The notes beneath the pieces are model-generated. The model was not told where the DNA came from and did not search any database. It saw only the letters and a program-made list of their open reading frames with translations. Position numbers and translations under genes: made by a program. This document shows positions 2,903 to 22,021 of a stretch of 24,000 bases of DNA, one piece after another (positions within the stretch are counted from its first letter, which is position 1; every line of letters begins with the position of its first letter). Origin of the DNA: an uncultured Planctomycetia bacterium (lineage in GTDB: Bacteria; Omnitrophota; Gorgyraeia; Duberdicusellales; 4484-171); contig CAZSDJ010000007.1 in NCBI GenBank assembly GCA_964605645.1, positions 1 to 24,000 of the forward strand, read 5' to 3'.

Positions 2903-2903
2903 C

Positions 2904-4955: not shown

Positions 4956-5564
4956 TTAGAGCATAAGGAGAATGACAAGAATCAAGACGATGGCAGCAAT
5001 TGCTAAAACAATATAAGTAAAAATACCTACCTTTTCTTTTTTTATCTTTTTTTCTTTAGAAGAGGCTATTTTTTGTTCTACTTCAGGCGGTTTTTCAACT
5101 TCTCTTAAGGAGGCCGGCCCCTCTAGATGGACGGCAGTACCATAGGCTAAAACTTCACTGCAGCCAACACCGCTTCCTTTTTTAGATTTTCCTAAGGTGG
5201 AGGTCTCAATCCTGGTGTTTAAAATTATATTTGCTTCTCTGGCTGATTCTTTCATTCTAAGGATAGCTTCCCTTCTGCCTCTATCCAATACAGATTCGAA
5301 AGCATAAACTTCGCCTCCAAATACTTTCTTTAGCCCTCCCCAAAATAACTTAAAATAATCTATTGAAACCACAATACTGCCGTAAACCATTTGAGAAGAT
5401 TTTATTTTTTGACCTTCTTCAAGGAAATTTTTCGCTGAAATGGCTGGTAGATGGAGGAACTCCTTTTCCCGTTTTTTTATTTCAAGATAATGTTTTTTCT
5501 CAATTAATTTTGTTCCAATAAGGTAGGCTCCGGCAAGCAAAATAGCAAAGATTAGTAGGTCCAT
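4956..5564 (-). CDS. membrane-anchored YbjQ-like (UPF0145) domain protein with TM helices at both termini
   Basis: 202 aa. An N-terminal TM helix is followed by a YbjQ-like core (…GGLKKVFGGEVYAFESVLDRGRREAILRMKESAREANIILNTRIETS…VLAYGTAV), a K/E-rich segment and a C-terminal TM helix (IFTYIVLAIAAIVLILVILLML). Confidence 0.55.
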   Translation of the reverse strand: MDLLIFAILLAGAYLIGTKLIEKKHYLEIKKREKEFLHLPAISAKNFLEEGQKIKSSQMVYGSIVVSIDYFKLFWGGLKKVFGGEVYAFESVLDRGRREAILRMKESAREANIILNTRIETSTLGKSKKGSGVGCSEVLAYGTAVHLEGPASLREVEKPPEVEQKIASSKEKKIKKEKVGIFTYIVLAIAAIVLILVILLML

Positions 5565-5582
5565 TTATCTCCCCCTCCTAAT

Positions 5583-5897
5583 TTACTCAGCCTTTACGGC
5601 TGTTCCATAAACATATAGTTCTGAAGCCCCTTGGGTTATAGACGAAGTTGAGAAACGAACGTTGATTATGGCGTTTGCGCCTAACTGTTTTGCTTGTTGG
5701 CTCATTCTTTCTAAGGCTTGGTTTCTTGCGCCTTCAAGAAGTTTAGTATAGCCTTTTAGTTCTCCGCCGACCATATTTTTAAGCCCAGCTGCCATATCAG
5801 CTCCAATATGGCGTGCTTTTACAGTTGAGCCCGAAACAAGACCGTAGTGTTCAACAATTTTTTTGCCGGGAATCGATTCTACATTAGTTAGAATCAT
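5583..5897 (-). CDS. ybjQ: YbjQ family protein (UPF0145, annotated elsewhere as putative heavy-metal-binding)
   Basis: 104 aa with full-length resemblance to the UPF0145 pattern (…IPGKKIVEHYGLVSG…GGELKGYTKLLEGARNQALERMSQQAKQLGANAIINVRF…YVYGTAVK). Confidence 0.8.
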   Translation of the reverse strand: MILTNVESIPGKKIVEHYGLVSGSTVKARHIGADMAAGLKNMVGGELKGYTKLLEGARNQALERMSQQAKQLGANAIINVRFSTSSITQGASELYVYGTAVKAE

Positions 5898-6607: not shown

Positions 6608-7504
6608 ATGCGCAAGTATCAAACTTTGGTTTTAATTTTAGCTTTATTTTTAGTTGCCGGTTGTGATAAGATCATGCCGGTAACTTCCGCCCCGGAAAAA
6701 GACCAAGAACAAAAAGTGAGTACTACAATCAGAGGGCCATTGCTAGCTAAAGTTAACGGCTGGGCGATGGGGTTGGATGATTTTAGGCAACGTCTCGATG
6801 CTTTAAAAGCAATGATTCCGGAAGATCAACGCGGGCAAGAATTGGGCGTCGAAGATAAGAAAAATATTCTGCAAGAATTAGTGAATGTTCAAATTTTAGG
6901 AAAAGTTGCTAAAGAAAAAGGTTTAAATAAAGACAAAGATGTCCAAGAAGCTGTTGAAAATTTTAAAAATTCTTTGTTAGTGCAGAAATTAAGAGAAAAT
7001 ATTACAAAAGATGTAGTGGTGACTGATGCCGAAATAGAAAACTTTTATAATACCAACAAACTTGCTTTTCAAAAACCGGAAGAAAGAAGGGTCAGAGAAA
7101 TAGTAGCATCTTCTGAATCACAGGCAAAAAATATTTTAATCAGATTGTTACAGGGCGAAAATTTTTCTGTGTTAGCTAGAACTAATTCTATTTCCGAATC
7201 GGCATCACAAGGAGGGGATTTAGGTTATATCACTCCTCAGGCAGAGGAAAGATTTCAAAAATTTTGGGAAGCCGCTTTTACCACTGACAAAGGAGATACC
7301 TCCAATTATTTTAAAGGGCCGGAAGGTTATTATATAGTGAAAGTAGAGGATATCCGCGGCGGCGAAGCCCAGCCGTTAAGTGAAGTAAGAGATCAAATCA
7401 GCCAATACTTAAAGGCCCAGAAAGTGCAAACAAAAATTGAAGATTTAATTTACGAAGCAAAACAAAGGCTGAAAGTTACAATTAATGATTATTTGATAGA
7501 ATAA
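6608..7504 (+). CDS. SurA/PrsA-like parvulin-type peptidyl-prolyl isomerase lipoprotein
   Basis: 298 aa with lipobox LVAG|C. SurA-N-like helical region followed by a parvulin block (RVREIVASSESQAKNILIRLLQGENFSVLARTNSISESASQGGDLGYITP…GYYIVKVEDIR). Confidence 0.8.
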   Translation: MRKYQTLVLILALFLVAGCDKIMPVTSAPEKDQEQKVSTTIRGPLLAKVNGWAMGLDDFRQRLDALKAMIPEDQRGQELGVEDKKNILQELVNVQILGKVAKEKGLNKDKDVQEAVENFKNSLLVQKLRENITKDVVVTDAEIENFYNTNKLAFQKPEERRVREIVASSESQAKNILIRLLQGENFSVLARTNSISESASQGGDLGYITPQAEERFQKFWEAAFTTDKGDTSNYFKGPEGYYIVKVEDIRGGEAQPLSEVRDQISQYLKAQKVQTKIEDLIYEAKQRLKVTINDYLIE

Positions 7505-8289
7505 TGGATAAAAAAAAGTTAATAAATTTAGGGATTGGAGTAGTGCTGGCAATAATTGCGATTGTGATTATTAACGCCCGCCTTCAAGAAAGAGAAAATA
7601 TAATTCAGCGCCTTATTCAAGAAGGCAATGTGGCTCAAGTATTGGTGGCATCGCGTGATATCGAAAAAGGTGAAATGATCAGAGAGAATGTGTTGGGTTT
7701 TGTAAAAATTCGTTCAGAAAACCTTAAAAACAATGCCTTGCAATCGCCGGAGTCAGCAGTGGGGAAAATTGCCAGAGTCGATATTTTACGGAAGCAGGAA
7801 ATTTTATCAACTATGTTAGAACTTCCGGAAGGATCGCAAACACTTTCTCAAAAAACGCCTTCCGGGAAAAAAGCCTATACTATCTCTATTGATCAAATTT
7901 CAGCCGTGGGGGGGAATATCCGGCCGGGGAACAAAGTTGATGTGGTAAGCATAATGCAGCTTCCCCAAAATCAGGGCCAAACAGTTATGACTCTGTTTGA
8001 GGCGGCAAGAGTGCTTCAAATGGGCCAAGGCGGCAAGAACTTAGACAGTATTACTTTAGCCTTGACCAGCGAAGAAATAAAAGTTCTTACCTTTGCGCTG
8101 CAAAATGGACAAATCAAACTTGTACTTAGATCGCCTTTGGATGAACCGGAAGGAACAGCTTTTCAACCTTTTACCTATCAAACATTTATGCAAAAGATTT
8201 ATAATGCTATGGGAGTTAGCCCTCAAAGAGGGCCTGTTGAGCAAAAACCGGATGTTGAAATTTATCGCGGCGGGAGTTCAGGAGAGTAA
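7504..8289 (+). CDS. cpaB: Flp/Tad pilus assembly protein CpaB/RcpC (SAF domain + RcpC domain)
   Basis: 261 aa. N-terminal TM anchor, then a SAF-like segment (VLVASRDIEKGEMIRENVL…VGKIARVDILRKQEI) and a C-terminal CpaB-like region. The start overlaps the upstream stop by 1 nt (TAATG). Confidence 0.8.
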   Translation: MDKKKLINLGIGVVLAIIAIVIINARLQERENIIQRLIQEGNVAQVLVASRDIEKGEMIRENVLGFVKIRSENLKNNALQSPESAVGKIARVDILRKQEILSTMLELPEGSQTLSQKTPSGKKAYTISIDQISAVGGNIRPGNKVDVVSIMQLPQNQGQTVMTLFEAARVLQMGQGGKNLDSITLALTSEEIKVLTFALQNGQIKLVLRSPLDEPEGTAFQPFTYQTFMQKIYNAMGVSPQRGPVEQKPDVEIYRGGSSGE

Positions 8290-9887
8290 TGAAATTACAA
8301 AGATTGTTTTTAATTTTAATTTTAATATTTACATTTAGTTTAACTATCTTTTCTTCATCTGTTTTTAGCCGAGATGATTATTATCAAGCATTAATGTTTG
8401 AAGAAGGGGCAGGAGAAGGCTTAGATATTGTGGTTGGCGATATTCAAGTTATTAAGGTAGAGGGAATAAAAAGGGTATCAATTCGTGATCCGAATATTGC
8501 TAATATTCAAAAAGCAGAAGCAGGTGAAATTATAATTGCCGGAAAATCGCAAGGATCAACGGTGCTTTCGGTATGGACGCAAAGCGGTAAACAACAATTT
8601 CAAATCAATGTAATTTCTGAAGATTTACCGGCATTGAAGAAAAAACTTGAAGAAATCATTCACCAAAAGTTAGGGATAACAGAGGTAACTTTGCGCGAAA
8701 ATAAATCGACTGGAAAAATTATGCTGTTGGGCAATATCACCCAAAACCAACGAAATAAAATTGAGCAAGTCATTGCTCCTTTTGCGAATAAGATTGAAGA
8801 TTTATTAATTACTAAAAAAGAACAGGAAATGGTAGAAATTGACGTTCAAATTTTAGAACTGAATAGAACTGATGCAAAAAATTTAGGCGTAGATTGGATG
8901 GATAGTATCGATATTACCGAAGCAGCTCCGGCAGCTTCAAGAAGTTGGAAATCGTTATGGCAGACAGGTACTTGGTCGCGGGGTAATTTAAATGCTACTT
9001 TAAATTTATTAATTAAAGAAGATAAAGGCAGAGTTTTATCAAGGCCAAAATTACTTTGTTTAAATGGTGAAGAAGCCGAGCTTTTGGTAGGTGGAGAAGT
9101 TCCCGTTTTAACAGAGGCGACAATCGGTGCAGGGAGCGGAACAAGTTCGGCTTCGATTGAATACAAAGAATACGGGATAAAACTTTTGATTAAACCTTTT
9201 ATTTTAGAAGAACAAATTTATCTCTCAATTACAGCCGAGGTGAGTGATGTAACTTCTGTAAACGCACTCACTGTTCAAGGCACGACTACACCTGCCTTTA
9301 CTGTAAGAAGAGCCCAAACGGTAGTTAATGTTGAATCAGGTGATACTGTATTTTTAGGAGGCCTTATCGACAGTGATGATTCAGACATTATTGAGAAATT
9401 GCCCGGATTTTCTCAAATTCCGATTTTAGGGGCACTTTTTCGTTCCAAGGATTTTACTAGTGAAAAGACTGAGCTTTTTATTACTTTGACTCCTAAAATT
9501 ATTAATTTAAGGAAAAAAGCAACAGCTTTGAAAACTGACAGTAAGTTTGAAGCTAAGCCGGAAGAGAGCCTTTTATACCAAAAATCTTCAATCCCTTTTG
9601 ATTTGCAAGGTTATGTACTGAGAGTTCAAAAAATAATATCAAATAATATAACTTATCCGCGAGAATTGTCAGGGACCGGTTGGAAAGGCAGGGTTGTTTT
9701 GTATTTAGAAGTTAATCAATATGGCGAGCTTTTAGATGTAAAGATAAAGAAGTCTTCCGGTTATAAAATATTTGACAAAGATGCTCTAGATTTGGTGAAA
9801 AAACTCAACTTCCATCCTTTTCCTTCTGAATTTGAAGAAGAAGAAATTAATATCGAAATTCCGATAGTTTATCGGGAATATAGGTAA
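8289..9887 (+). CDS. cpaC: CpaC/RcpA-type secretin with an added C-terminal TonB_C-like domain
   Basis: 532 aa with a signal peptide. Pilus-N domain (GDIQVIKVEGIKRVSIRDPNIANI…GSTVLSVW). Canonical secretin core (…VLSRPKLLCLNGEEAELLVGGEVPV…IEYKEYGIKLLIKP…EKLPGFSQIPILGALFRSK…ELFITLTPKII). The last ~90 aa (nt ~9606-9884: YPRELSGTGWKGRVVLYLEVNQYGELLDVKIKKSSGYKIFDKDALDLVKKLNFHPFP) read as a TonB C-terminal domain. Confidence 0.8.
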   Translation: MKLQRLFLILILIFTFSLTIFSSSVFSRDDYYQALMFEEGAGEGLDIVVGDIQVIKVEGIKRVSIRDPNIANIQKAEAGEIIIAGKSQGSTVLSVWTQSGKQQFQINVISEDLPALKKKLEEIIHQKLGITEVTLRENKSTGKIMLLGNITQNQRNKIEQVIAPFANKIEDLLITKKEQEMVEIDVQILELNRTDAKNLGVDWMDSIDITEAAPAASRSWKSLWQTGTWSRGNLNATLNLLIKEDKGRVLSRPKLLCLNGEEAELLVGGEVPVLTEATIGAGSGTSSASIEYKEYGIKLLIKPFILEEQIYLSITAEVSDVTSVNALTVQGTTTPAFTVRRAQTVVNVESGDTVFLGGLIDSDDSDIIEKLPGFSQIPILGALFRSKDFTSEKTELFITLTPKIINLRKKATALKTDSKFEAKPEESLLYQKSSIPFDLQGYVLRVQKIISNNITYPRELSGTGWKGRVVLYLEVNQYGELLDVKIKKSSGYKIFDKDALDLVKKLNFHPFPSEFEEEEINIEIPIVYREYR

Positions 9888-9966
9888 TTATATAATTAAT
9901 CTTGACGGCAGAAGTTAAAAACCTTTCCTTAAGGGAACTAATCTTAAAACAAAATAATTGTTAAAA

Positions 9967-12135
9967 ATGGATAATTCTAAATTAATTACTTTAATTAGTC
10001 CAAAAGGCGGGGTAGGCAAGACTATTATTTCCCTTAATTTGGCAACCGCTCTTTCTTTAAAGAAGAAAAAAACAATATTGCTTGATCTAGATTTACGGGC
10101 ACCGCAGGGAACTCATAAATTAATGAATATAAAGTGCAAATATTCACTTTATAATTTAGCCGGTTCAATTCAAAAATTTAAAAGTGAAGAGCGCCATCTG
10201 GAAAGTTATATCTCCCGCCATAGCAGCGGTTTATTTTTTGTGCCGGGGATTTTAAGAACAAAAGAAAAGTTTTCTTTAACTCCAGAGGTGATTCGAGATT
10301 TTCTTTCCCTTCTTTCCACAAAATTCGAATATGTAATAATTGATGGTGGTAGTGAGTTAACAGATCAACTAATAACCACTCTGGATAGTTCTAATTTAAT
10401 TGGACTAGTTTTATCACCGGACATTGTCTCAATCTATCAGAATGAGTGGATTATCGATACTTTACAGAGCTTAGGTTATCCGTTGAGCATGGTTAAGACT
10501 ATTCTAAATAGAGCCCAAAGCAAAGGTGGGGTTAGTGTGCAGGAGATAAAAGTATTATTAAATAGTGAAATAATTTCACAAATACCTTCGGAAGGGAAAG
10601 TGGTAGGCTATGCGGTGAACAAGGGCAATCCGGTTGTAATGGATAGTCCCAAAGCTAAAATTAGTGAGGCATTTAACGAATTAGCAGATAAGTTAATCAC
10701 TAAACCAAGTATTTTCATAGCCAGGAAAAATTTACAGGATATCAGGATAAAAACAGTTAAAGAAAAAGAAACTCAAGCAAGTATTTTAGAAAAAAGTTTA
10801 GGTGAAAAAAAAGCACCTCAGAAATTAGCGGAAGAAGAAGATGCTGTAATTCAGCTGAAAAAAAGAACTCAAAGTAGACTTCTTGATGAAATGGACCTAA
10901 AACGACTTCCCCTGGAAAAAATCTTATCGGATAAGCATCAGATGAAATCTTTACGAGATAAAGCAAAAAAGATAGTGACAAATATTATCGCACAAGAAGC
11001 TGGCGGGTTTATTTCATCAGCCGAGGTAAGAGCAAAAATAATCAAAGAAGTCCTAGATGAAGCCTTAGGCCTGGGGCCTTTAGAAGATTTGTTGAATGAC
11101 CCCGAAGTAACAGAAGTTATGGTCAATAATAAAGACCAGGTTTTTATTGAAGAAAAAGGAAAATTAAAACTTACTACCAAGAAATTTATATCTAACAATC
11201 AAGTAAGGATTATAATTGAAAGGGTCCTTGCTCCCCTGGGAAGAAGAATAGATGAATCAGTGCCCTATGTGGATGCTCGGCTGCAAGACGGTTCCCGGGT
11301 GAATGCGATAATTCCGCCGCTGTCGTTAAGTGGGCCAACTATAACTATTCGTAAATTTGCCCACGAAAGGTTTAATATGGAAGATTTAATCAACAGGTTT
11401 GGCAGTTTAACGTCAGATATGGGTAAATTTTTAAAAGCTTCAGTTGAATCGAGGAAAAATATACTGGTGTCCGGTGGAACCGGTTCAGGTAAAACTACCT
11501 TTTTAAATATTTTATCTTCATATTTACCGGGAGATGAGCGAATTGTGACTATCGAAGATTCCGCTGAACTAAAGTTGCACCAAAGGCATTGGATTCGACT
11601 TGAATCACGGCCGCCTAACATCGAAGGCAAAGGGGCGATAACAATTCGCGAATTATTTCGTAATACTTTAAGAATGAGGCCGGATCGGATTGTAGTGGGT
11701 GAATGCCGCGGCCAAGAGGTATTAGATATGCTCCAGGCGATGAATACCGGCCACGACGGCAGCATGACCACCATTCATGCTAACTCACCCCAAGATGTAT
11801 TAATTCGCCTCGATAGTATGATTTTAATGAGCGGTGTGGATTTGCCGTTGCGGGCAATAAGGGAAATGATCGCATCGGCTCTCGATTTAGTAGTACAAAC
11901 TGCGCGGCTTTCCGATGGATCGCGTAAAGTTACTAAGATTACTGAAATTGCCGGAATGACTGATGAAACTCATATCAATTTACAAGATATATTTACTTTT
12001 CGCCAAACCGGCATTGGCAAGAATCAAGAAGTTGTTGGTGATTTCGTGCCATTGGGCAATATTCCTACTTATTATGATGAAATGAAAGCAAGAGGTATAG
12101 AATTACCGCGGGATATGTTTATCCCCGAGGAATAA
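9967..12135 (+). CDS. fusion protein: TadZ/CpaE-like ParA/MinD-type ATPase (N-terminal) + TadA/CpaF type IV filament ATPase (C-terminal)
   Basis: The N-terminus has the deviant Walker A LISPKGGVGKTIISLNLA and the MinD/ParA layout (~250 aa). A K/E-rich linker follows. The CpaF core has Walker A VSGGTGSGKTTFLN, Asp box TIEDSAEL, Walker B RPDRIVVGECRG and His box GHDGSMTTIHA. The ORF track starts at TTG 9958; ATG 9967 is preferred. Confidence 0.85.
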   Translation: MDNSKLITLISPKGGVGKTIISLNLATALSLKKKKTILLDLDLRAPQGTHKLMNIKCKYSLYNLAGSIQKFKSEERHLESYISRHSSGLFFVPGILRTKEKFSLTPEVIRDFLSLLSTKFEYVIIDGGSELTDQLITTLDSSNLIGLVLSPDIVSIYQNEWIIDTLQSLGYPLSMVKTILNRAQSKGGVSVQEIKVLLNSEIISQIPSEGKVVGYAVNKGNPVVMDSPKAKISEAFNELADKLITKPSIFIARKNLQDIRIKTVKEKETQASILEKSLGEKKAPQKLAEEEDAVIQLKKRTQSRLLDEMDLKRLPLEKILSDKHQMKSLRDKAKKIVTNIIAQEAGGFISSAEVRAKIIKEVLDEALGLGPLEDLLNDPEVTEVMVNNKDQVFIEEKGKLKLTTKKFISNNQVRIIIERVLAPLGRRIDESVPYVDARLQDGSRVNAIIPPLSLSGPTITIRKFAHERFNMEDLINRFGSLTSDMGKFLKASVESRKNILVSGGTGSGKTTFLNILSSYLPGDERIVTIEDSAELKLHQRHWIRLESRPPNIEGKGAITIRELFRNTLRMRPDRIVVGECRGQEVLDMLQAMNTGHDGSMTTIHANSPQDVLIRLDSMILMSGVDLPLRAIREMIASALDLVVQTARLSDGSRKVTKITEIAGMTDETHINLQDIFTFRQTGIGKNQEVVGDFVPLGNIPTYYDEMKARGIELPRDMFIPEE

Positions 12136-12137
12136 TT

Positions 12138-13202
12138 ATGGCAGAAGGCGTAGAAAAATTAAATAAGTTATTGGCTGATCCAAAAACTACAGAAATCATG
12201 ATTAACGGCCCTCAGGCTGTTTTTTTAGAAAAAGACGGTAAAACTTACAAGGAAGATTCTGTAAGTTTTAGCGAAAAAGAGATAGAAGATATTATAAAAG
12301 ATTTTTTTATAAAAAATGGAAAGATGGTGTCCCACAATCATCCTTATGCGGATGTTTGCCTCGAGGATGGATCACGCCTGAATATAATTTTAGCCCCGAT
12401 GTCACGCTGCGGCAGTTCAATTACAATCAGAAAGTTTTCTCAAGAACTAAAAAGTCTAGATGATTTATTGCAACGGGATGCAATGAGTAAAAATATGGCT
12501 GAATTTTTAAAAAGCTGTATCCAGGCAAAACTCAATATATTATTTTCCGGGGCAACCGGAACCGGTAAAACCACTACTTTAGAGATGCTTTCTTATTCAA
12601 TCCCCAAAGATGAAAGAATTGTAACTATTGAAGATACTGCAGAACTTCAGCTGCATCAGCCAAATTTAGTCCCACTGGAAACTCGTGATCCGGATGAAGA
12701 AGGTAGAGGGGGGGTAACTTTAAGAGATTTAATAAAAAATGCTCTCCGCATGCGCCCGGATCGAATAATTTTAGGTGAAGTACGCGGGGAGGAAGCTTTA
12801 GATATGGTACAAGCGATGGCAACCGGCCATACCGGGACTTTAGCGGTAGTTCACGGCAGCAGTCCTAAAGATATATTAGGCCGAATTGAGGCGATGGTTT
12901 TATCTTCCGGGATAAAACTGCCTTTAGAGGAAATTAGAAAAATGTTGGCGGCAACTTTAGATATTGTTGTGCAGCACCATCGCTTTGTCGATGGTTCCCG
13001 CCGGATTACTCATATTACAGAAGTAAGGGATATTCAGCAAGGAGAAATCGTTTTACAGGATTTATTTGTTTTTCGACGCGAAGGCAAAACTTCGGAAGGA
13101 AAAATTAAAGGAAGTTTCAAAACGGTGATGAAGAGATATCCTAAATTTTTCACCGATATGCGCCGTATGAACTTAATCGACGATAAAATCTTTTCCGATT
13201 AA
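12138..13202 (+). CDS. cpaF: second, stand-alone TadA/CpaF-type type IV filament ATPase
   Basis: 354 aa, starting 2 nt after the upstream stop. Walker A FSGATGTGKTTTLE, TIEDTAEL, RPDRIILGEVRGEEA and GHTGTLAVVHG are all intact. The compact N-terminal domain is similar to the corresponding region of the fusion protein. Confidence 0.85.
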   Translation: MAEGVEKLNKLLADPKTTEIMINGPQAVFLEKDGKTYKEDSVSFSEKEIEDIIKDFFIKNGKMVSHNHPYADVCLEDGSRLNIILAPMSRCGSSITIRKFSQELKSLDDLLQRDAMSKNMAEFLKSCIQAKLNILFSGATGTGKTTTLEMLSYSIPKDERIVTIEDTAELQLHQPNLVPLETRDPDEEGRGGVTLRDLIKNALRMRPDRIILGEVRGEEALDMVQAMATGHTGTLAVVHGSSPKDILGRIEAMVLSSGIKLPLEEIRKMLAATLDIVVQHHRFVDGSRRITHITEVRDIQQGEIVLQDLFVFRREGKTSEGKIKGSFKTVMKRYPKFFTDMRRMNLIDDKIFSD

Positions 13203-13212
13203 TCCACTCCAG

Positions 13213-13367
13213 AGGGGACGTTTCCCTCTTTCATAACTAATTGATTAACAACAAGTTGCAAAGGTATATTTTCCGCGTTTTTATTAGCTATGCATATTTT
13301 TTCCTGGAAATGTTGCCTTCATAACCAATTGTATAGCAAGGGGTTACAAACGAGGGAAACGTCCCCT
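13213..13367. repeat. 155-bp segment bounded by perfect 16-bp inverted repeats (AGGGGACGTTTCCCTC / GAGGGAAACGTCCCCT), MITE-like or a long hairpin
   Basis: 13213-13228 is the exact reverse complement of 13352-13367. Each arm is also a small self-hairpin. There is no ORF inside. It begins 10 nt after the cpaF stop. Confidence 0.5.
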
Positions 13368-13449
13368 TTTTATACCTTTTTTATATAAATTACAAAATTC
13401 CCTTGAAAAATCTTTTTTTGATATGTTATCTTTAAATCAAAGAGGGTTC

Positions 13450-13476
13450 TAGGGGCACGGCATGCCGTGACCCTAC
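13450..13476. repeat. REP-family palindrome variant (TAGGGGCAC-GGCATGCC-GTGACCCTAC)
   Basis: It shares the outer arms (TAGGGGCAC…GTGnCCCTAC) with the 28-bp palindromes at 18798, 19087 and 20640 but has a different centre. The 14-bp core CACGGCATGCCGTG is a perfect palindrome. Confidence 0.45.
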
Positions 13477-13484
13477 TTAGCCAA

Positions 13485-13509
13485 GGGGGCAAACGCCCCC
13501 TATTTTTTT
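13485..13509 (+). terminator. intrinsic terminator candidate
   Basis: GGGGGC-AAAC-GCCCCC stem-loop followed by TATTTTTTT. Confidence 0.6.
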
Positions 13510-13514
13510 ATCTG

Positions 13515-13542
13515 ATTCCCACCTTTTGGGTGGGAATTTTTA
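13515..13542 (+). terminator. second intrinsic terminator candidate
   Basis: ATTCCCACC-TTTTG-GGTGGGAAT stem-loop followed by TTTTT. In tandem with the previous hairpin. Confidence 0.55.
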
Positions 13543-13562
13543 TGATATAATAAAGGTCAATT

Positions 13563-15509
13563 ATGTTAGAAAAAGTTAATAAGATAATTGATTTTTTACG
13601 CTGGCCGGCATTTTTTCTTCTTTTTTCCTACCTGATTCTTTTTGCTTCTCTTAACTTACATGGTTTAGATTATTTGTTTCACATTAAAAGTGGTGAACAT
13701 ATCTTAGAAAGTGGCCATGTTCTCAGAGAAGATCCTTTTTCATTTACTCAAGCAGGCAAGAAATGGGATGATCATGAATGGCTTTATCAGGTTTTAATTT
13801 ATAAAATTTATCAGCAATTTGGGATTGAAGGGTTAGTTTTATTTAAAACAATAGTCTTAATTACAGCTTTTTTTCTTCTAGCTCTTATTGCTTTAAAGAT
13901 TGATTGGATTTTTGCTTTTTTTCTGATTTTTTTTAGCTTAAAAGTATCCTTTTTGCGTTTTACGCTGCGGCCGGACCATTTTAGTTTTCTCTTTTTTATT
14001 GTTTTTCTGATACCCTTTATCTTTAAAAAAAAGAAATTACTTTATTTACTTCCTTTTGTTCAGCTGATTTGGGTAAATACGCACGGTTTTTTCTTTCTCG
14101 GGCCGGCGGTATTAATTATTTATCTGCTCAGCGCTAAAATAAGTAAGCAACAATTTTCTGATGATTTTTACAAAAGAGTAAAAATTATAACCTTTTTTAC
14201 CTTTTTTGCCTGTTTGCTAAATCCTTATCCAATTGGTACTATCACCTATCCTTTAAAAATTATAAAAGATATATTAACCGGCCAACAAGGTGTTTTTTAT
14301 CAGAGCATACAAGAATTGCGAAAACCGCTAGCAGCTTTTAGTTGGAGTTCTTTATACATAAAATATCTGATAGCTACCAGTTTTTTTGTTTTTATTTTTA
14401 AAAAATTCAATCTTTTTTATGCTGTTCTTTGGCTGGTTATGGTGATTTTTGCCCTAAATTCTACCCGTAATTTCTACTTTTATATCCCGGCAGCAGTAGT
14501 ATTGGCCGTAAATCGATTTCCTTATTTGGAAAAATCTTTTTTAAAAAAAAGTATTACTCCTAAAAGGTTTATTTTTTTAAAAATTGTTTTATTAGTTTTT
14601 ATTGTAAAGATTTGTTTAGCAATTTCAGGTGAAATTATTGATTTACCGAAGACCAAACAGTCATACCTTGATTTTTCTGTAAAGAATTCACTCGCTACTA
14701 GCCAAAAGTCTCTTGGCCGGGAAAAAATTCAATATCCGGAAAAATTAATTGATTTTATAAAAAATAATAAATTGCCTGGGAGGATGTATAACAATTTTAA
14801 TCTTGGCTCAAGCTTAATATTTAATCTCTATCCGGAGAGAAAAGTATTTATTGACGGCAGGGCAGAATTTTACGGCCAAGATTTTTTTAATTTTTATAAT
14901 GAAATTTCATCCGGGGATGAGGAAAAAATAAAGGAAGCCGTCAGCAGATATAAGCTAGAAGGATTTGTGATTAGTTATGTTAGAAACGATCCTCCTGATT
15001 TAATTTTTAGCCTTTACCAGCAAGGCTATAAGTGTATTTATTTCGGGATGGATGGAATAATTTTTATAAAGAATTCAGCCTTAAAAAATTATACCAATTT
15101 AGAGAAAAAAATAGTTGATTTTGATAATTATAAACCAGAAAAAATTAATTTTATTAAAAATATAAAACTCTATACCCCCTACGCCGAAGGTTTGTACAAG
15201 AAAGGTTATATATTGTATAGATTAGGCTTTTATAATCAGAGTAGAATATATATGGACAATTTATTAAATATTTATCCGGGCCATTACAAGGCATTATATA
15301 TTCTGGCGAAAATAAATTATAAGAATAAAAAATATGAACAAGCTTATATTTTTGCGCGTCAGGCGCTTAGTTTTAAATCGGATTTTAAAAAAGCTAAGAA
15401 ATTTATTGCAAAAATTTATCTAGATTTAGGAAAAGAAGAAGAGGCCCAGGAAATTTTAGATAAATTAAATTTAAGTTTAGAAAAATTTAAAAATGAAAAG
15501 GTAAGGTAA
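13563..15509 (+). CDS. large polytopic membrane protein with C-terminal TPR repeats; possible GT-C-fold glycosyltransferase (tentative)
   Basis: 648 aa with about 10 or more hydrophobic helices in the first ~370 aa. The first loop carries an acidic motif (REDPFSFTQAGKKWDDHEWLYQ). The C-terminal ~120 aa read as TPR (…YKKGYILYRLGFYNQS…YKALYILAKINYKNKKYEQAYIFARQAL…). The function is a guess. Confidence 0.35.
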   Translation: MLEKVNKIIDFLRWPAFFLLFSYLILFASLNLHGLDYLFHIKSGEHILESGHVLREDPFSFTQAGKKWDDHEWLYQVLIYKIYQQFGIEGLVLFKTIVLITAFFLLALIALKIDWIFAFFLIFFSLKVSFLRFTLRPDHFSFLFFIVFLIPFIFKKKKLLYLLPFVQLIWVNTHGFFFLGPAVLIIYLLSAKISKQQFSDDFYKRVKIITFFTFFACLLNPYPIGTITYPLKIIKDILTGQQGVFYQSIQELRKPLAAFSWSSLYIKYLIATSFFVFIFKKFNLFYAVLWLVMVIFALNSTRNFYFYIPAAVVLAVNRFPYLEKSFLKKSITPKRFIFLKIVLLVFIVKICLAISGEIIDLPKTKQSYLDFSVKNSLATSQKSLGREKIQYPEKLIDFIKNNKLPGRMYNNFNLGSSLIFNLYPERKVFIDGRAEFYGQDFFNFYNEISSGDEEKIKEAVSRYKLEGFVISYVRNDPPDLIFSLYQQGYKCIYFGMDGIIFIKNSALKNYTNLEKKIVDFDNYKPEKINFIKNIKLYTPYAEGLYKKGYILYRLGFYNQSRIYMDNLLNIYPGHYKALYILAKINYKNKKYEQAYIFARQALSFKSDFKKAKKFIAKIYLDLGKEEEAQEILDKLNLSLEKFKNEKVR

Positions 15510-15510
15510 A

Positions 15511-16440
15511 TTATTTTTTATCAAGAGTGATATTCTTTGCTATATTTTTGATTTCTGCATAAATCTTTGCTTGATCGTTTCCCAAAGTCCAACCGATAAA
15601 TTTTAAGTCAAAATCATTAATTCTAAGGTAAAGTATAAGGTAATCTTGTCTATTGCCCTTTGTGATATCTGTGTATTGAATTTGGAAACCAGTATTTTTA
15701 TTTATAAAAAAAGAAGATTTTTTTACTTTTATATTTCTTTTAAGATTTAAATCATTAGATAAAGTATTTTTAAGAGTTTTTAAACTAAAACTTTTTTTAA
15801 ATAAATTTAATTCTTCGGGGATGATTAAGCAAAATGAATTACCATTTTTTCTGATTAAAGCAATTTCAGCTTCTGTTTTTAAGAATTTTTCCTTTATTTG
15901 AGAAAAATCATCCCTTCTTACTATTTTCCAGTTAGCGGGGGTATTGAGTTTATAATTGAAGGCTGGGCTTATAAATTCTTTTTGTCCGTATTTTTTAAGC
16001 TTTATTAAAAGCTGTTGTTTGTAGCTGATATAATAGGCGGTCAGATAGCCGTTAGTTAAAAGCATAATTACCGTTAAAATAGCTAAAATAGCGGCTCTTT
16101 TTAGCTTATCTAGAGCCAGGAGCCCTAAGCAAAGTAAAGTGACGATTCTAGCCCAAATTAAGCCATATTGGGCATCAACTAGGTAAAATACCAGGAGTGT
16201 GCTAATTAACCCCAAGAATAATCTGAAGAAAAAGGTTCTTTTTATTTTTGGCTTGTTTTGGAAGAATGCATAAGCTAAGTAGAAGTCAAAAAAAGCAAAG
16301 GCAAGTTTTAAATAGCCAAGCAGGTTTATGGGTAAATACATAACCTGCCAAAAGAAAAGAAAGAATTCAGCTAAACCTGTAACGAGAAGGACAAGCGCTA
16401 ATGTTTCGTAGTTTGATTTTAATTTAGATTTTTGGGCCAT
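15511..16440 (-). CDS. hypothetical membrane protein (N-terminal multi-TM region + C-terminal soluble domain)
   Basis: 309-aa ORF with 4-5 hydrophobic helices in the first ~150 aa. No recognisable motif. It is convergent with the previous gene, with only 1 nt between the stop codons. Confidence 0.6.
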   Translation of the reverse strand: MAQKSKLKSNYETLALVLLVTGLAEFFLFFWQVMYLPINLLGYLKLAFAFFDFYLAYAFFQNKPKIKRTFFFRLFLGLISTLLVFYLVDAQYGLIWARIVTLLCLGLLALDKLKRAAILAILTVIMLLTNGYLTAYYISYKQQLLIKLKKYGQKEFISPAFNYKLNTPANWKIVRRDDFSQIKEKFLKTEAEIALIRKNGNSFCLIIPEELNLFKKSFSLKTLKNTLSNDLNLKRNIKVKKSSFFINKNTGFQIQYTDITKGNRQDYLILYLRINDFDLKFIGWTLGNDQAKIYAEIKNIAKNITLDKK

Positions 16441-16482
16441 ATTTATTTTTAGTTACCAGTTGCCAGGCCACCAGTTTCCAGT

Positions 16483-17277
16483 TTAGTATTTTTCTAATAA
16501 TGAGGGAATAATAATTTTTGCGTCTTTTACTAAGTTTGCTTCGGATTCATCAAAAAGAAAAGGCTGCAATGAGTCAGCCTGTTTTTTTAGTTCTTTTTTG
16601 GAAAAGCCTTCAATTCTTTTTGTTATTGTTTGAAAAGGCTTTGTCTTGATGCCTAAAGTTTTTAACCTGTTTTTATCAATCGGATATTTATTTGAAAGCA
16701 TAAAAATTATATCATAAATATGCCTGCCTTTATTTTTTTTTCTGAGGGCATCGATTTTGTCAGCAAATAAAATGCTCTTTCTAGTGCAGAGGCAAGGATA
16801 AAACTGGCCAAAACCGGCAGCTACTTCTGTTTCTGTATTTATTCTTTGTTTTAACAAAACAGATTCTATTTTAATAATGATTCCTTCTTTTTTGGAATAT
16901 TTTGATTTTGCTTTATATGTTTGTTCTATTTGAGGGAAAATTAAATTTGCTACGTAAAGATTGCCCCAATGAGAAAACTCTAATTTAGGTTTTAGGCCAA
17001 TTCTTTTTAATTCATTTTTTACTTTTTCGAGAAGCTTTTCAAATTTAAGTTTGGTTATTTTGTTACTGTTAAAATCTAAATCTTCAGAAAATCTTTTTAA
17101 GTTATGAATCAATCTAAGATAAGTTCCTCCGGTAAAATAAAGTTTTTTCCCTTCCGGAATCTTATAAATTTCCTTTAGAATAAGGATTTGTAAATATTCT
17201 CGTAAAATTCCCCGGATTTTTGTAGGCGGCATCTCCCTTGATTTAGCCTGTTCTAACAAAGTTTCATAAGTCAGCAT
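16483..17277 (-). CDS. abiEii: AbiEii/AbiGii-family nucleotidyltransferase toxin (type IV TA / abortive infection)
   Basis: 264 aa. The motif YFTGGTYLRLIHNLKRFSEDLDFN is the DUF1814/AbiEii nucleotidyltransferase signature. The gene overlaps the upstream partner by 14 nt. Confidence 0.8.
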   Translation of the reverse strand: MLTYETLLEQAKSREMPPTKIRGILREYLQILILKEIYKIPEGKKLYFTGGTYLRLIHNLKRFSEDLDFNSNKITKLKFEKLLEKVKNELKRIGLKPKLEFSHWGNLYVANLIFPQIEQTYKAKSKYSKKEGIIIKIESVLLKQRINTETEVAAGFGQFYPCLCTRKSILFADKIDALRKKNKGRHIYDIIFMLSNKYPIDKNRLKTLGIKTKPFQTITKRIEGFSKKELKKQADSLQPFLFDESEANLVKDAKIIIPSLLEKY

Positions 17278-17872
17278 AAAATTCTCCCAGATTAAGATTA
17301 TAAAGTCTAGCGTATTTATTCAATTTTTTCTTATTAAGAGATTTAAGTTTTTTTTCATCAAACCGTTGGTCTTTTAAATTTATTTTTTTATTACGGTAAT
17401 TATTAAAATAGAGATAATCAATAAAGGCTTTTTCCGGCTCGGCAATAAGAATATTAAAATCGCCTTGTTTTTCTAAATAGTATCCCGCGAAAGCTTTTGG
17501 TTGGACTGTTTTATAAATAAAAAGGCCATGTTTATTTTTAAATTTGCGCGTAGGTTTTGTAGAGATAGACGTTACCGCCATAGATACTTCCGGAATAATG
17601 CTGTAATCCGATAAGGCAGTTTCTAGTGAGATATAAGAAGGATTATAAAGTTTGTTAGCAATATAAAAATCAGGGATCATAAAATCAGTTGGGAAGCTTA
17701 ACTCATATAAACCTCGCTTCAGGTGATAAATCCATCCTTTTTCACACCACCGAAACAGCATTTTTTTTAGATTTTCTTTTTTTTCGCTAGGTGAGAAGGA
17801 GAGAAGATCATCATAGGAAAAAATGAAGTATTTATGTTTTTCTAAAGTTTTGTAAAGTTCTTGAAATCTCAT
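17264..17872 (-). CDS. abiEi: AbiEi-family antitoxin / wHTH regulator
   Basis: 202 aa. The N-terminal wHTH-like pattern (…IFSYDDLLSF…LKKMLFRWCEKGWIYHLKRGLYEL) is typical of AbiEi. The gene lies immediately upstream of abiEii. Confidence 0.7.
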   Translation of the reverse strand: MRFQELYKTLEKHKYFIFSYDDLLSFSPSEKKENLKKMLFRWCEKGWIYHLKRGLYELSFPTDFMIPDFYIANKLYNPSYISLETALSDYSIIPEVSMAVTSISTKPTRKFKNKHGLFIYKTVQPKAFAGYYLEKQGDFNILIAEPEKAFIDYLYFNNYRNKKINLKDQRFDEKKLKSLNKKKLNKYARLYNLNLGEFYADL

Positions 17873-17979
17873 TTCACTAAGTACTCTTTTTTGTCCACTT
17901 ACTGAAACAAGTGTAACCTAATTTTCAAGGTTTGTCAAGGGTTGGAAGGTGATAGCTTGCGGTTATCAGAAGAAAGTAA

Positions 17980-18261
17980 TTAGCCTTCCTTGCGCAAATG
18001 GACTTGTTGATAAACCTCTTTTCTGTGGCCTATTTTAAAAATAATAATATCTTTTTTATCTATTTTATAAATAACCCGGTAATCACCGACGCGAAGTTTT
18101 CGATATTGCTGTAAGCCTCTTTTTAGGGGTTGCCCGTATTTTGTCGGTTCTGCCAATAATCTTTCTTCAATCGCTTTGCGAATTCTTTTTTGGAGATTTT
18201 TCGGTATTTTGGGCAGATCCTTTCTTTTAATATCGGGATGATAAAGTAAATTATAAGCCAT
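17980..18261 (-). CDS. RelE/ParE-family type II toxin
   Basis: 93 aa. …LPKIPKNLQKRIRKAIEERLLAEPTKYGQPLKRGLQQYRKLRVGDYRVIYKIDKKDIIIFKIGHRKEVY is a typical RelE/StbE pattern. Confidence 0.85.
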   Translation of the reverse strand: MAYNLLYHPDIKRKDLPKIPKNLQKRIRKAIEERLLAEPTKYGQPLKRGLQQYRKLRVGDYRVIYKIDKKDIIIFKIGHRKEVYQQVHLRKEG

Positions 18262-18489
18262 TTATTCCCAAGTTTCTTGATGCGATAGAGATTTTTTAGG
18301 AGAAAAGGTTTTTTCTCTTTCCTGGGCTGATTTTTGCCAATAGCTGTCTGCATGGAGTTCTAACGCCTCTTTGATCAAATCCCTTGCTGCCAAAGAGAGA
18401 GAAACTCCTTCTCGATGTGCCAATTTATCTAAAGCTTTGTATAATCTTGGTTCCAACACAACATTTAAACGCGGGTTTTTTGTCGGCAT
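18262..18489 (-). CDS. ribbon-helix-helix (CopG-like) antitoxin
   Basis: The preferred start is MPTKNPRLNVVLEPRLYKALDKLAHREGVSLSLAARDLIKEALE. On the - strand, GGAGGTG lies 7 nt upstream of this ATG. The stop abuts the toxin start (TAAATG). The longer ORF-track start (18537) lacks an RBS. Confidence 0.8.
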   Translation of the reverse strand: MPTKNPRLNVVLEPRLYKALDKLAHREGVSLSLAARDLIKEALELHADSYWQKSAQEREKTFSPKKSLSHQETWE

Positions 18490-18558
18490 AATTTTCACCT
18501 CCATATCAAATGTATCACATATGATGAACTTTGTCAAGAGCGGCTGGGGAGCATATTT

Positions 18559-19074
18559 TTATTTGGGGTAATATTTATCATTTTTCCAATTGCCAGGATT
18601 ATCGAGGATGTAATGGCGGATGCGGTTTAAATTGAATTCAGTGCGGATTGTGTGTTCATAATAATTGCGTTGCCAAATCGGTTGTTTTGGCATATTCCGT
18701 AATTGGTTGATCTGTTTTGTTGTTGTTGATTTAAACAATTTAACAATTGTCGGTATTGAATTTGGCGTGGAGCAACCAAATTTTTCAACATGATTATGTA
18801 CGGGCACATTGCAATGTGCCCGTACGATATTGATTATTCCATGGATATGATTTGGCATTATAATAAATTCATCCAATTCAATATTTTTACGGATTTTTTC
18901 CGTTTTACACCATTCTTTTTGAATAATTCTCCCATATTTATTTAAAATCATTTTTTCATTATATATATCGCCAAACAGGTATTTACGATTATTTACACAT
19001 ATTGTCACATAATACATACCTGGTTGGCTGTAATTGTAATTTTTTAATCGTATTGATTTGCGGTTTTTTAACAT
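18559..19074 (-). CDS. REP-associated tyrosine transposase (RAYT; IS200/IS605-like Y1 HUH transposase, COG1943-type)
   Basis: Typical N-terminus MLKNRKSIRLKNYNYSQPGMYYVTICV, HUH motif PNHIHGII and catalytic-Tyr block IWQRNYYEHTIRTE…IRHYILDNPGNW. The ORF-track start at 19098 lies inside the flanking palindrome, so the second Met (19074) is preferred. Confidence 0.85.
   Translation of the reverse strand: MLKNRKSIRLKNYNYSQPGMYYVTICVNNRKYLFGDIYNEKMILNKYGRIIQKEWCKTEKIRKNIELDEFIIMPNHIHGIINIVRAHCNVPVHNHVEKFGCSTPNSIPTIVKLFKSTTTKQINQLRNMPKQPIWQRNYYEHTIRTEFNLNRIRHYILDNPGNWKNDKYYPK
18798..18825. repeat. 28-bp perfect palindrome GTACGGGCACATTGCAATGTGCCCGTAC, a REP copy inside the RAYT coding sequence
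   Basis: Read directly. It encodes …VRAHCNVPV… between the HUH motif and the Tyr helix of the RAYT. Confidence 0.8.
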
Positions 19075-19086
19075 GGGTTTTATTTG

Positions 19087-19114
19087 GTAGGGGCACATTG
19101 CAATGTGCCCCTAC
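19087..19114. repeat. 28-bp perfect palindrome GTAGGGGCACATTGCAATGTGCCCCTAC (REP)
   Basis: Read directly. It lies in the divergent intergenic region between the RAYT and the 478-aa ORF. Confidence 0.85.
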
Positions 19115-19202
19115 ATTGTTATTTTTTACCCCCTTTACTTATAGACGAAATAAAACGGGAAATTCTTTCATTTTTTTTGATTTTATTCTATAATAGATAA
19201 TA

Positions 19203-20767: not shown

Positions 20768-20835
20768 GGGGGAGGCGCGAAAATGCGTAAAAATGTATTT
20801 TTAACAAGCCGGATGCCTCCCCCGAGGTTATCCGG
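20768..20835 (+). promoter_or_regulatory. structured 5' leader with two mutually exclusive hairpins upstream of the first pilin gene
   Basis: GGGGGAGGC (20768-20776) pairs with GCCTCCCCC (20815-20823). CCGGAT (20809-20814) pairs with ATCCGG (20830-20835), followed by TTTTG. The two stems are adjacent and appear sterically incompatible. Confidence 0.3.
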
Positions 20836-20857
20836 TTTTGTAATTATGGAGACAAAA

Positions 20858-21154
20858 ATGAAAAAAGCACAGTCAATAGTCGAATACGCAATAGCATTTG
20901 TGGTGGTGGTCAGCGGCATAATTGCTATCGGTTTTATTGCTGATGCAAGAGGAGTTTTCCAAAATCATTTTGATGAAGTAATGCAGGAAATGAGCATGAA
21001 CAATCAACCTGTTGCTGTTGTTTTGAATTCGGATAATAGTTCTGAAAAAGATGATTCTAAAACAGCTGCTTCTGAAGAGAACAATTCCGAAGAAGATGAT
21101 TCTACTGGTGTTAAAGCTGGAGGAATAAGTGCTTTTGGTGTTTGGTGGAAGTAG
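20858..21154 (+). CDS. pilin-like protein P1 (class III signal, Flp/TadE-like N-terminus, acidic S/D/E-rich tail)
   Basis: GGAG lies 6 nt upstream of ATG 20858. Begins MKKA|QSIVEYAIAFVVVVSGIIAIGF…. The ORF-track start at 20783 would add a 25-aa leader and sits inside the leader hairpin. Confidence 0.65.
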   Translation: MKKAQSIVEYAIAFVVVVSGIIAIGFIADARGVFQNHFDEVMQEMSMNNQPVAVVLNSDNSSEKDDSKTAASEENNSEEDDSTGVKAGGISAFGVWWK

Positions 21155-21178
21155 TTTTGGTTTTTAATTTTAAAAATA

Positions 21179-21367: not shown

Positions 21368-21383
21368 CTTAAGGAGGTGGGAG

Positions 21384-21575: not shown

Positions 21576-21598
21576 AAATAATTTTTAGGAGGTGGCAG

Positions 21599-21985: not shown

Positions 21986-22021
21986 TCGTTACGGGATAAA
22001 AAGATGAGGAGGAGGTTTTAG

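Follow-up and report, generated by a model that had tools for sequence, protein, structure and literature searches.

INTRODUCTION

How one CpaF ATPase both extends and retracts Tad pili is a matter of active debate; a 2024 study invoked an allosteric switch, and a 2026 preprint, in which Tad is classed as a "single inverting ATPase" motor, proposes a physical inversion of the hexamer (bioRxiv 10.64898/2026.02.24.707734). What, then, could be the task of a second CpaF-type ATPase encoded directly behind the first? This question is raised by a 24,000-nucleotide (nt) stretch of DNA, here called the window, from an uncultured bacterium of the Omnitrophota (GenBank assembly GCA_964605645.1, contig CAZSDJ010000007.1, positions 1 to 24,000, forward strand). 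The first gene (9967 to 12135, + strand) encodes TadZA, a single 722-aa polypeptide composed of a TadZ module and a TadA/CpaF motor, and the second (12138 to 13202, +) encodes CpaF2, a short CpaF paralogue of 354 aa. According to our preferred reading, to which we assign a probability of roughly 0.4, TadZA would be the extension motor and CpaF2 a recruited second motor, for which a PilT-like role as retraction motor or antagonist is the most likely one.

RESULTS AND DISCUSSION

The first ATPase is a TadZ module tethered to a complete TadA motor

The TadZ module of TadZA (aa 1 to 253; 9967 to 10725, +) has a MinD/ParA fold with the deviant Walker A motif KGGVGKT, based on Pfam domains (CbiA/ParA/AAA_31 at aa 5 to 258) and on matches of residues 5 to 246 to MinD/ParA structures in the PDB. 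Its MinD part begins at residue 5, and an atypical receiver domain (ARD) is missing in front of it; in the separate TadZ proteins of about 50 other loci, the MinD module is located at about aa 130 to 385. The nucleotide site is well preserved: G14, G15, G17, D126, and G128 are invariant in 58 fusions, K13, K18, T19, D40, and D42 are conserved in at least 90% of them, and the complete motif KGGVGKT is present in 50 of the 58. In an AlphaFold2 (AF2) model built on 58 homologues, the TadZ module reaches a predicted local distance difference test (pLDDT) score of about 80 to 95 and is followed by a disordered K/E-rich linker (aa 254 to 292; 10726 to 10842, +; pLDDT of <50) and a three-helix bundle (3HB), i.e., the N1 domain (aa 293 to 367; 10843 to 11067, +), with helices at residues 293 to 309, 316 to 345, and 352 to 367. 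The remainder comprises the N-terminal domain (NTD) and the catalytic ATPase domain (CAD) of the TadA part (11068 to 12132, +), where Pfam places T2SSE at aa 367 to 648 (E = 2.4e-60). Residues 298 to 712 align with residues 86 to 490 of Caulobacter crescentus CpaF and thus cover 3HB, NTD, and catalytic domain. Pfam, PDB matches, and AF2 therefore confirm the preliminary description of this locus, which had read the protein as a receiver-less MinD-like module, a K/E-rich linker, and a full CpaF core. An alternative TTG start at 9958 would extend the protein to 725 aa, but the ATG at 9967 is the likely start because the homologues have a length of about 719 to 723 aa.

Residue numbers of the ATPase cores given below follow C. 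crescentus CpaF in a reconstructed and verified numbering. All 119 fusions analyzed possess the Walker A and Walker B motifs, the Asp and His boxes, and the arginine fingers R217, R223, and R347. According to PMC12019362, CpaF has an extension interface that is built from alpha5, loop 8, and the pore loop. Loop 8 (G204-R205-R206-x-D208) is conserved to 95 to 97% in 79 canonical TadA proteins and to 99 to 100% in the 119 fusions, and the fused core of the window, with GRRID in loop 8 and E and G in the pore loop, shows the canonical state of this interface (loop 8 GRRxD; pore loop E331/G334). Judged by its catalytic residues, the 3HB-NTD-CAD architecture, and its context in a tad locus, the fused core is a TadA/CpaF motor ATPase.

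The fusion is not peculiar to the window. A search of 5.8 billion proteins retrieved 119 further TadZA clusters, a number that represents a lower bound, with 56 to 93% identity. Nearly all of them cover 98 to 100% of the query and are 708 to 743 aa long; the exception is P0030, a 549-aa fragment. The named clusters belong to Candidatus Omnitrophica/Omnitrophota, and the sources include NCBI, JGI, ENA, and Logan assemblies. Length constancy over 119 or more clusters, with the fusion seen on many independent contigs, indicates a genuine fusion, as read in the preliminary description, and the same architecture recurs in related genomes within a conserved operon of the order PpiC-CpaB-secretin-TadZA. 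A chimeric assembly or a frameshift at the junction of TadZ and TadA was ruled out by the conserved homologues, the conserved TadZ site, and the domains of the AF2 model.

A cross-phylum sample was obtained from the open reading frames (ORFs) of 80 loci in a scan of species-representative genomes; one search peptide, DMLQAMNT, is universal in CpaF, and the loci are therefore mostly non-Omnitrophota. Single-ORF TadZA fusions were found in Omnitrophota, Bdellovibrionota (six loci), Elusimicrobiota, WOR-3, and two metagenome-assembled genomes (MAGs). Separate TadZ and TadA proteins are the rule in Firmicutes, Actinomycetota, Chloroflexota, Acidobacteriota, Planctomycetota, Nitrospirota, and most Proteobacteria; here, TadZ has about 385 to 450 aa, with an ARD of ~130 aa before the MinD module, and TadA has about 430 to 480 aa. 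A third class of loci contains a TadA with a non-TadZ N-terminal extension of ~220 aa; to judge from this size, it is probably the FHA class of the literature. In neighbor-joining (NJ) trees on p-distances (336 aligned columns, 60 bootstraps), the Omnitrophota fused cores are monophyletic in 59 of 60 replicates, and monophyly of all fused cores was recovered in none of the 60. Elusimicrobia-type TadZ modules carry a different P-loop (GPKEGVGKT), and the BLAST scores of Omnitrophota TadZ modules do not rise from separate TadZ proteins (53 to 132 bits) to Bdellovibrionota fusions (69 to 98 bits). Two premises of the preliminary description, a consistent separation of TadZ from TadA and the presence of one secretion ATPase, are not supported: fusions exist in Bdellovibrio (bioRxiv 10.64898/2026.07.08.737194) and in Bdellovibrionota, Elusimicrobiota, and WOR-3, and Bdellovibrio bacteriovorus has the paralogues tadA2 and tadA3 (bioRxiv 10.64898/2026.07.08.737194). 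The TadZA fusion is thus already known in kind, and the same architecture has been studied experimentally in Bdellovibrio.

The second ATPase retains the catalytic boxes and has lost the extension interface

CpaF2 contains T2SSE as its only Pfam domain (E = 1.8e-48). Its residues 7 to 342 correspond to residues 150 to 485 of CpaF, i.e., to NTD and CAD, and both the intrinsically disordered region (IDR) and the 3HB are missing. The best phmmer match in the PDB is CpaF (2.3e-82), the predicted fold is of high quality (pLDDT of 90.2; predicted TM-score [pTM] of 0.88), and the best Foldseek hit is again CpaF, with a TMq of 0.80 and 42% identity; identity to PilT amounts to about 17% in a structure-based alignment. 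The two ATPases of the window are 45% identical over 343 aa. By its closest relative in sequence and fold and by its catalytic boxes, CpaF2 is assigned to the CpaF lineage. Two other assignments were rejected: the PilT family model TIGR01420 (pilT_fam) gives 66.7 bits compared with a cutoff of 319.1, and the VirB11 model TIGR02788 gives 233.1 bits compared with a cutoff of 249.95, CpaF being a far better match.

In the family of short homologues (n = 121), K287, T288, E312, E357, H382, R347, R223, and D215 are present in every member and R359 is present in 120. The striking exception is the NTD arginine finger R217, which is found in all 79 canonical TadA proteins and all 119 fusions but in none of the 121 short proteins, 109 of which have a Cys instead. 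In each of the two published structures of CpaF, this arginine is in contact with the phosphates of the nucleotide. CpaF2 of the window reads DVCLEDGSR in this region, with Cys in place of R217, and GKMVS in loop 8, in agreement with the family consensus G-K-[NPIT]-[IV]-S; K205 occurs in 99% of the family, R206 in 13 and D208 in 9 of the 121 members (Ser in 84%). In the pore loop, N329 is replaced by D and E331 is variable. The preliminary description had considered all Walker, Asp, and His boxes intact, which is correct for the boxes of both cores and misses R217, a residue outside the boxes. CpaF2 accordingly lacks both the 3HB of the published minimum CpaF architecture and the active-site feature R217. 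Since the extension interface is lost, the sequence favors a functional divergence of CpaF2.

CpaF2 stems from an old paralogue lineage

The CpaF2 family comprises at least 120 clusters with 338 to 452 aa (most of them 347 to 364 aa) and 55 to 92% identity to CpaF2. All 60 bootstrap replicates recover it as monophyletic, and only one of them unites it with the Omnitrophota fused cores as sister groups. Its Kimura distance from every TadA group is 0.94 to 0.98, compared with 0.57 to 0.63 among the TadA groups themselves; the deep placement of this long branch is unreliable, as it attaches to other long branches in NJ trees. The phylogeny proposed at the outset to tell recent duplicates from ancient paralogues thus speaks for the latter, given 45% identity and separate clades. 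A recent tandem duplication was rejected on the same identity value, the sister relationship in a single bootstrap replicate, and the nested position of CpaF2 among short orphan proteins near a group of 420-aa proteins with Cys-217.

This wider group emerged from a scan of metagenome contigs, whose taxonomy is mostly unassigned, with the family motif D-x-C-x-x-DGSR-x-N followed by TxRKF. The 80 loci listed consist of 46 short-type loci and 34 loci of the 420-aa type. Nine of the 46 short-type genes are located directly behind TadA or TadZA, and all nine products are at least 59% identical to CpaF2 of the window; 10 were not judgeable in this respect. Orphans share a conserved context of housekeeping genes, yidC-parA-parB-ndk-yicC-gmk-rpoZ-x-shortCpaF-thrS, and one orphan cluster is named Verrucomicrobiota. 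Five loci with this arrangement (L143, L097, L116, L145, and L128) encode proteins of 355 to 361 aa with a Cys at the position of R217. The other 34 loci encode CpaF-like proteins of 420 aa with Cys-217, an N terminus of 3HB length, and a near-canonical loop 8 (RRRVD); they are named Candidatus Omnitrophota, and two copies per locus often flank proS. Examples are L093 (6946 to 10747), L094 (3462 to 7279), and L141 (2180 to 5974), where two CpaF-like ATPases of 409 to 421 aa flank a class II aminoacyl-tRNA synthetase gene, which is probably proS. These pairs are located inside an isoprenoid/translation cluster (uppS-cdsA-dxr-rseP-ispG ... nusA), and the motif-matched copy, which has a Cys at the position of R217, is canonical both in loop 8 and in the pore loop.

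A joint NJ tree places canonical TadA and the Omnitrophota fused cores on one side and the short proteins, both adjacent and orphan, as sister to the 420-aa Cys-217 type on the other side, with the clade of the window CpaF2 nested among the short orphans. According to this topology, CpaF2 derives from an older paralogue lineage and was placed behind tadZA by one subclade of Omnitrophota. A restriction of the short family to Omnitrophota was refuted by the Verrucomicrobiota-named cluster, a Kiritimatiellota-named MAG, and Thiorhodococcus minor. In the latter (L083, JAAIJQ010000040.1, 9201 to 19239), a short paralogue of 350 aa with 56% identity is encoded convergently to a tad locus comprising a secretin, TadZ (396 aa), TadA (461 aa), TadB, TadC, two TadE-like proteins, and one TadG-like protein, and it is preceded by the gene of a 132-aa PilZ protein. 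Contamination is unlikely because the GC content of the short gene (59%) is close to that of the locus (63%). The T. minor locus may represent a culturable system bearing on the role of the paralogue and on a possible link to cyclic di-GMP. A different pair is present in a Myxococcota MAG (L041, 9656 to 17603), where CpaF homologues of 535 and 907 aa are encoded within about 8 kb in a Tad/Kil-like locus, the larger of them being a paralogue on a long branch.

The frequency of orphans suggests an alternative, namely, that CpaF2 serves a target other than the Tad pilus, as its orphan relatives presumably do, with type IV filaments of a different kind or unrelated substrates as candidates, and that the adjacency to tadZA in one subclade yields nothing more than coexpression. 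The yidC...thrS context, the related 420-aa ATPases that flank proS in Omnitrophota, and the Verrucomicrobiota-named orphan cluster would fit this explanation, as would the predominance of short-type loci without an upstream TadA (see below). It is opposed by the position of cpaF2, which usually starts 1 to 6 nt (maximum, 58 nt) behind tadZA, by a putative ribosome-binding site inside tadZA, by the codivergence of both genes, and by T. minor, where the short paralogue likewise adjoins a tad locus of canonical type. Moreover, pilT genes are often unlinked to pilus operons, so that orphan status is compatible with a role in pilus function. We regard a non-Tad target as doubtful.

The tandem is recurrent, codivergent, and under purifying selection

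The gap of 2 nt between the two genes, given in the preliminary description, was verified in the sequence: the TAA of tadZA occupies 12133 to 12135, followed by TT (12136 to 12137) and the ATG of cpaF2 at 12138. A GAGGA sequence resembling a Shine-Dalgarno (SD) site (12127 to 12131, +) lies within the 3' end of tadZA, 6 nt ahead of the ATG, and is also present in L086 and L089; it suggests that cpaF2 is translationally coupled. The order tadZA-cpaF2 was found in the window and in L086 to L088, L089, L108, L120, L123, L134, and L148, as well as on the partial contigs L137, L147, L158, and L164, and the ATPase pair thus recurs in related genomes. Gaps range from 1 to 58 nt and are mostly 1 to 6 nt long, with 58 nt in L123 and L148. 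The full operon PpiC-CpaB-secretin-TadZA-CpaF2 is present in L086, L089, L108, L120, and L148.

For a quantitative comparison, 25 pairs of TadZA and CpaF2 clusters were matched by the equal size of their longest contig, which is a proxy for a shared contig and the basis on which the presence of a CpaF2 partner was established for many clusters. The distances of fused cores and CpaF2 proteins covary over these pairs (Mantel r = 0.775, reached by 0 of 2,000 permutations), and CpaF2 evolves about 1.3 to 1.45 times faster than the fused core. The ratio of nonsynonymous to synonymous substitution rates (dN/dS) is about 0.045 for each of the two genes (window versus L086). On these measures, cpaF2 is selectively maintained by purifying selection and codiverges with the fusion in one Omnitrophota subclade.

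These data also bear on two further explanations. An assembly or frameshift artefact as the source of the fusion or of the second gene, or a decaying recent duplicate in the case of CpaF2, is extremely improbable. A truncated copy (aa 1 to 233) in the relative L001 points in this direction, and the window itself offers no support; the constant length of the fusions, the full-length CpaF2 in at least 120 clusters, the low dN/dS ratio, the divergence of the two cores, and the unanimous monophyly of the short family all contradict it. More serious is the idea that CpaF2 enters mixed hexamers with TadZA or sits on TadZA rings as a weakened regulatory subunit, where it would adjust the activity of the motor or leave some positions of the ring without the bulky tether to TadZ. 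Translational coupling suggests coproduction of both proteins, the exchange of R217 for Cys removes one of three arginine fingers and recalls regulatory paralogues, and six TadZ modules per ring might crowd each other sterically. Nevertheless, this explanation appears quite unlikely in view of the identity of only 45% and of numerous exchanges, both in the NTD and in the surroundings of the Walker A and His boxes. The family consists mostly of orphans that lack a neighboring partner, CpaF2 has been lost in some lineages that keep TadZA, and we know of no hetero-hexameric motor of the PilT/VirB11 type.

A candidate second motor in the Tad machine

The assignment of tasks in our preferred reading starts from TadZA, an ARD-less TadZ tethered via a disordered linker of ~40 aa to a complete 3HB-NTD-CAD TadA. 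TadZA would be the principal (extension) motor because the residues for docking to TadB/TadC in the extension orientation are all canonical, and, like TadZA of Bdellovibrio, it might depend on its own TadZ module for delivery or positioning. CpaF2 would have been recruited from the older Cys-217 lineage of Omnitrophota and neighboring PVC-type (Planctomycetes-Verrucomicrobia-Chlamydiae) phyla and would form its own hexamer, unable to engage the platform in the canonical extension mode. As a second motor, it could perform a different job in the same machine, most likely as a PilT-like retraction motor or antagonist; the data show domain anatomy, conservation, paralogy, operon linkage, and purifying selection, and from these we infer both its action on the Tad platform and its role there.

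A possible trace of such a division is found in the fused core itself, which between residues 150 and 490 departs from the canonical consensus (at least 90%) only at positions 386, 387, and 394, in or beside the N-terminal retraction motif of alpha11. In the Omnitrophota fusions, P386 is replaced by T in 81%, R387 by H or Q (Arg in 27 of 119), and E394 by D in 100%, and the window reads SPQD, i.e., Q in place of R387. P386/R387 form the "alpha11 N-term" element on the retraction face, and in the R387A mutant pili are made but not retracted (Whitfield et al., bioRxiv 10.64898/2026.02.24.707734). The changes at 386/387 are suggestive of a division of labor, though the pattern is not clean.

Several observations weigh against the assignment of CpaF2 as a retraction motor or, more generally, as a partner of TadZA. 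The loss of R217 could lower its ATPase activity. Residue 387 of the short family is mostly Gln (60%), with Arg and Lys in 16% each; the nearest relatives of the window have CpaF2 yet keep SPRD in the fused core, and loci without CpaF2 carry STRD, STQD, or STHD. As many as 27 of the 36 judgeable short-type loci from the motif scan have at least 400 nt of upstream sequence and no TadA in it. No cpaF2 was detected within 10 kb of tadZA in L002, L003, and L090, whose fusions are 52 to 57% identical to TadZA of the window, and the complete genome of L001 (CP070807.1) keeps only aa 1 to 233 of CpaF2. The truncated gene (12176 to 13090) is located behind tadZA and abutted by an opposite-strand gene for 1,809 aa, and the truncation looks like a lineage-specific loss of the partner. 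Given these lineages without a full copy, CpaF2 is evidently dispensable. A clean complementary degeneration, in which R387 is lost only in the presence of CpaF2 and CpaF2 keeps R387, is not supported by this pattern.

The evidence at R387 for a retraction role of CpaF2 is hence mixed, and on sequence grounds a separate motor role, possibly in retraction, is plausible. A more far-reaching version, in which an Omnitrophota subclade has a two-motor Tad system with an extension-only TadZA (eroded alpha11) and a dedicated CpaF2 retraction motor, a PilT analogue of independent origin within the CpaF lineage, and in which the Cys-217 clade, with its many orphans in housekeeping loci of Omnitrophota and PVC-type phyla, provides unlinked motors for pilus retraction or remodeling, seems rather unlikely to us.

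Genomic setting of the two ATPase genes

The two genes terminate a run on the + strand (6608 to 13202) with tiny gaps or none. It starts with a PpiC/SurA-like periplasmic rotamase (6608 to 7504, +; Pfam Rotamase_2/3), which has an identical position in L001, L002, L086, L089, L090, L108, L120, and L148, and continues with the Flp pilus assembly (alignment) protein CpaB/RcpC (7504 to 8289, +; Pfam RcpC and SAF; NCBIfam TIGR03177 pilus_cpaB with 147.6 bits compared with a cutoff of 71) and a Tad-type secretin (RcpA/CpaC) with a C-terminal TonB_C domain (8289 to 9887, +; Pfam T2SS-T3SS_pil_N, Secretin, and TonB_C). The fusion of secretin and TonB_C was seen in all Omnitrophota loci checked (L001, L002, L086, L089, and L090) and is a lineage feature. 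Two terminator-like hairpins found by a consensus scan 3' of cpaF2 (13484 to 13538, +) probably mark the end of the operon.

The genes for pilins and platform are separated from the ATPase genes by a variable island (13203 to 19200). It harbors genes for a 648-aa multipass membrane protein with C-terminal tetratricopeptide repeats (13563 to 15509), a 309-aa protein without an assigned role, an AbiEii toxin with a weakly AbiEi-like partner (16483 to 17872, -), a ParE/RHH pair (17980 to 18537, -), and an IS200-like Y1 transposase (18559 to 19098, -). The island at the equivalent place in L086 is shorter and has a different content. It is followed by a conserved 478-aa protein (19203 to 20639, +) with only weak N-terminal helix-turn-helix (transposase-like) similarity, whose counterparts in L086 (478 aa) and L089 (479 aa) are also encoded directly upstream of the pilin array; it is probably a tad component or regulator rather than a transposase.

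The array consists of six tandem small ORFs (62 to 128 aa; 20783 to 22728, +) for putative Flp pilins, recognized in translation by a Flp-like prepilin motif, K-[AG]-Q-S-x-x-E-Y, with a hydrophobic helix behind it; all Pfam matches are below threshold, e.g., Class_IIIsignal with E = 0.028. Comparable arrays in L086 and L089 contain 9 to 11 small ORFs. Two putative minor pilins of the TadE/TadF type, with the corresponding N-terminal motifs, are encoded at 22759 to 23876 (+), the second of which (23628 to 23876) has a weak TadE match (E = 0.0048). Behind the pilin array of L086, a 92%-identical relative, there are two T2SSF genes, which encode TadB and TadC. Judging from this syntenic locus, with TadB, TadC, and pilins downstream, the window represents a part of a complete Tad (type IVc/Flp) system.

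Upstream of the operon, the window contains tandem CNNM/CBS (CorC-like) paralogues (1661 to 3863, +), one with and one without a CorC_HlyC domain, and tandem YbjQ-domain genes adjoining an M48 peptidase (4956 to 5897, -). Synteny with the tad operon is seen for the CNNM pair and the PIN_5 gene in L001, L086, and L089. In L002 (1 to 1046; Omnitrophica CG1_02_44_16), a gene for a gyrase/topoisomerase IV A subunit with an intein and LAGLIDADG (precomputed Pfam) is located upstream of the tad operon.

Significance

In the available literature, we found no description of a tandem of TadZA and a short CpaF, of a Tad retraction paralogue, or of the Cys-217 clade, which forms a sizeable family of CpaF paralogues. 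A Tad operon with two motors supplies natural sequence variants for testing the single-inverting-motor model: one motor is canonical on the extension face and altered in the retraction motif, and the other is devoid of N1 and of the extension docking residues. The TadZA fusion spans several phyla with known or suspected predators or parasites. Thiorhodococcus minor is a named species, apparently not a MAG, with a short paralogue beside a canonical tad locus.

Comparison with known systems

The closest parallel to the first ATPase is the "atypical TadZA hybrid protein" of Bdellovibrio bacteriovorus, which comprises an ARD-less ParA/MinD-like TadZ, a flexible linker, and TadA; tadZA is essential there, and TadZ and linker bind the polar hub RomR (bioRxiv 10.64898/2026.07.08.737194). 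TadB and TadC of Omnitrophota group with those of Bdellovibrionales (Seymour et al. 2023). The fusions of both groups unite the same three parts in one polypeptide, are encoded in the main tad locus after the genes for CpaB and secretin, and have a KGGVGK[TS] Walker A motif. They differ in that Bdellovibrionota cores of the sampled loci keep P386-R387, which most Omnitrophota cores do not, and in the additional ATPases: those of B. bacteriovorus are encoded by an rcpA2-tadA2 module, which is dispensable, and by tadA3, which stands alone (bioRxiv 10.64898/2026.07.08.737194), and neither adjoins tadZA. In common with TadZ/CpaE of other systems, the TadZ module is a ParA/MinD-type ATPase with conserved ATP-binding residues encoded immediately upstream of tadA, but it has no N-terminal ARD and is covalently joined to TadA.

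C. crescentus CpaF and Aggregatibacter TadA (PDB 9e24 and 8rkd), each of them a single bifunctional Tad motor, are the best matches in sequence and fold for both ATPases of the window. The fused core resembles CpaF in the 3HB-NTD-CAD order, the canonical loop 8, the pore loop, and the arginine fingers, whereas CpaF2 is without R217, R206, and D208, and the window has two ATPases in place of the one inverting ATPase of the model. The published classes of CpaF are 3HB-NTD-CAD (the minimum), IDR-3HB-NTD-CAD, and FHA-IDR-3HB-NTD-CAD, and neither the TadZ-fused form nor the form without 3HB is among them (PMC12019362). In its general layout, the pair recalls PilB and PilT of type IVa pili, i.e., a long motor with an N1 domain and a short motor of ~350 aa without N1 and without an extension interface on the N face, the genes of the short motors being often unlinked to the assembly genes. 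Unlike PilT, CpaF2 is 42% identical to CpaF and only about 17% identical to PilT, and its resemblance to PilT is one of analogy or convergence.

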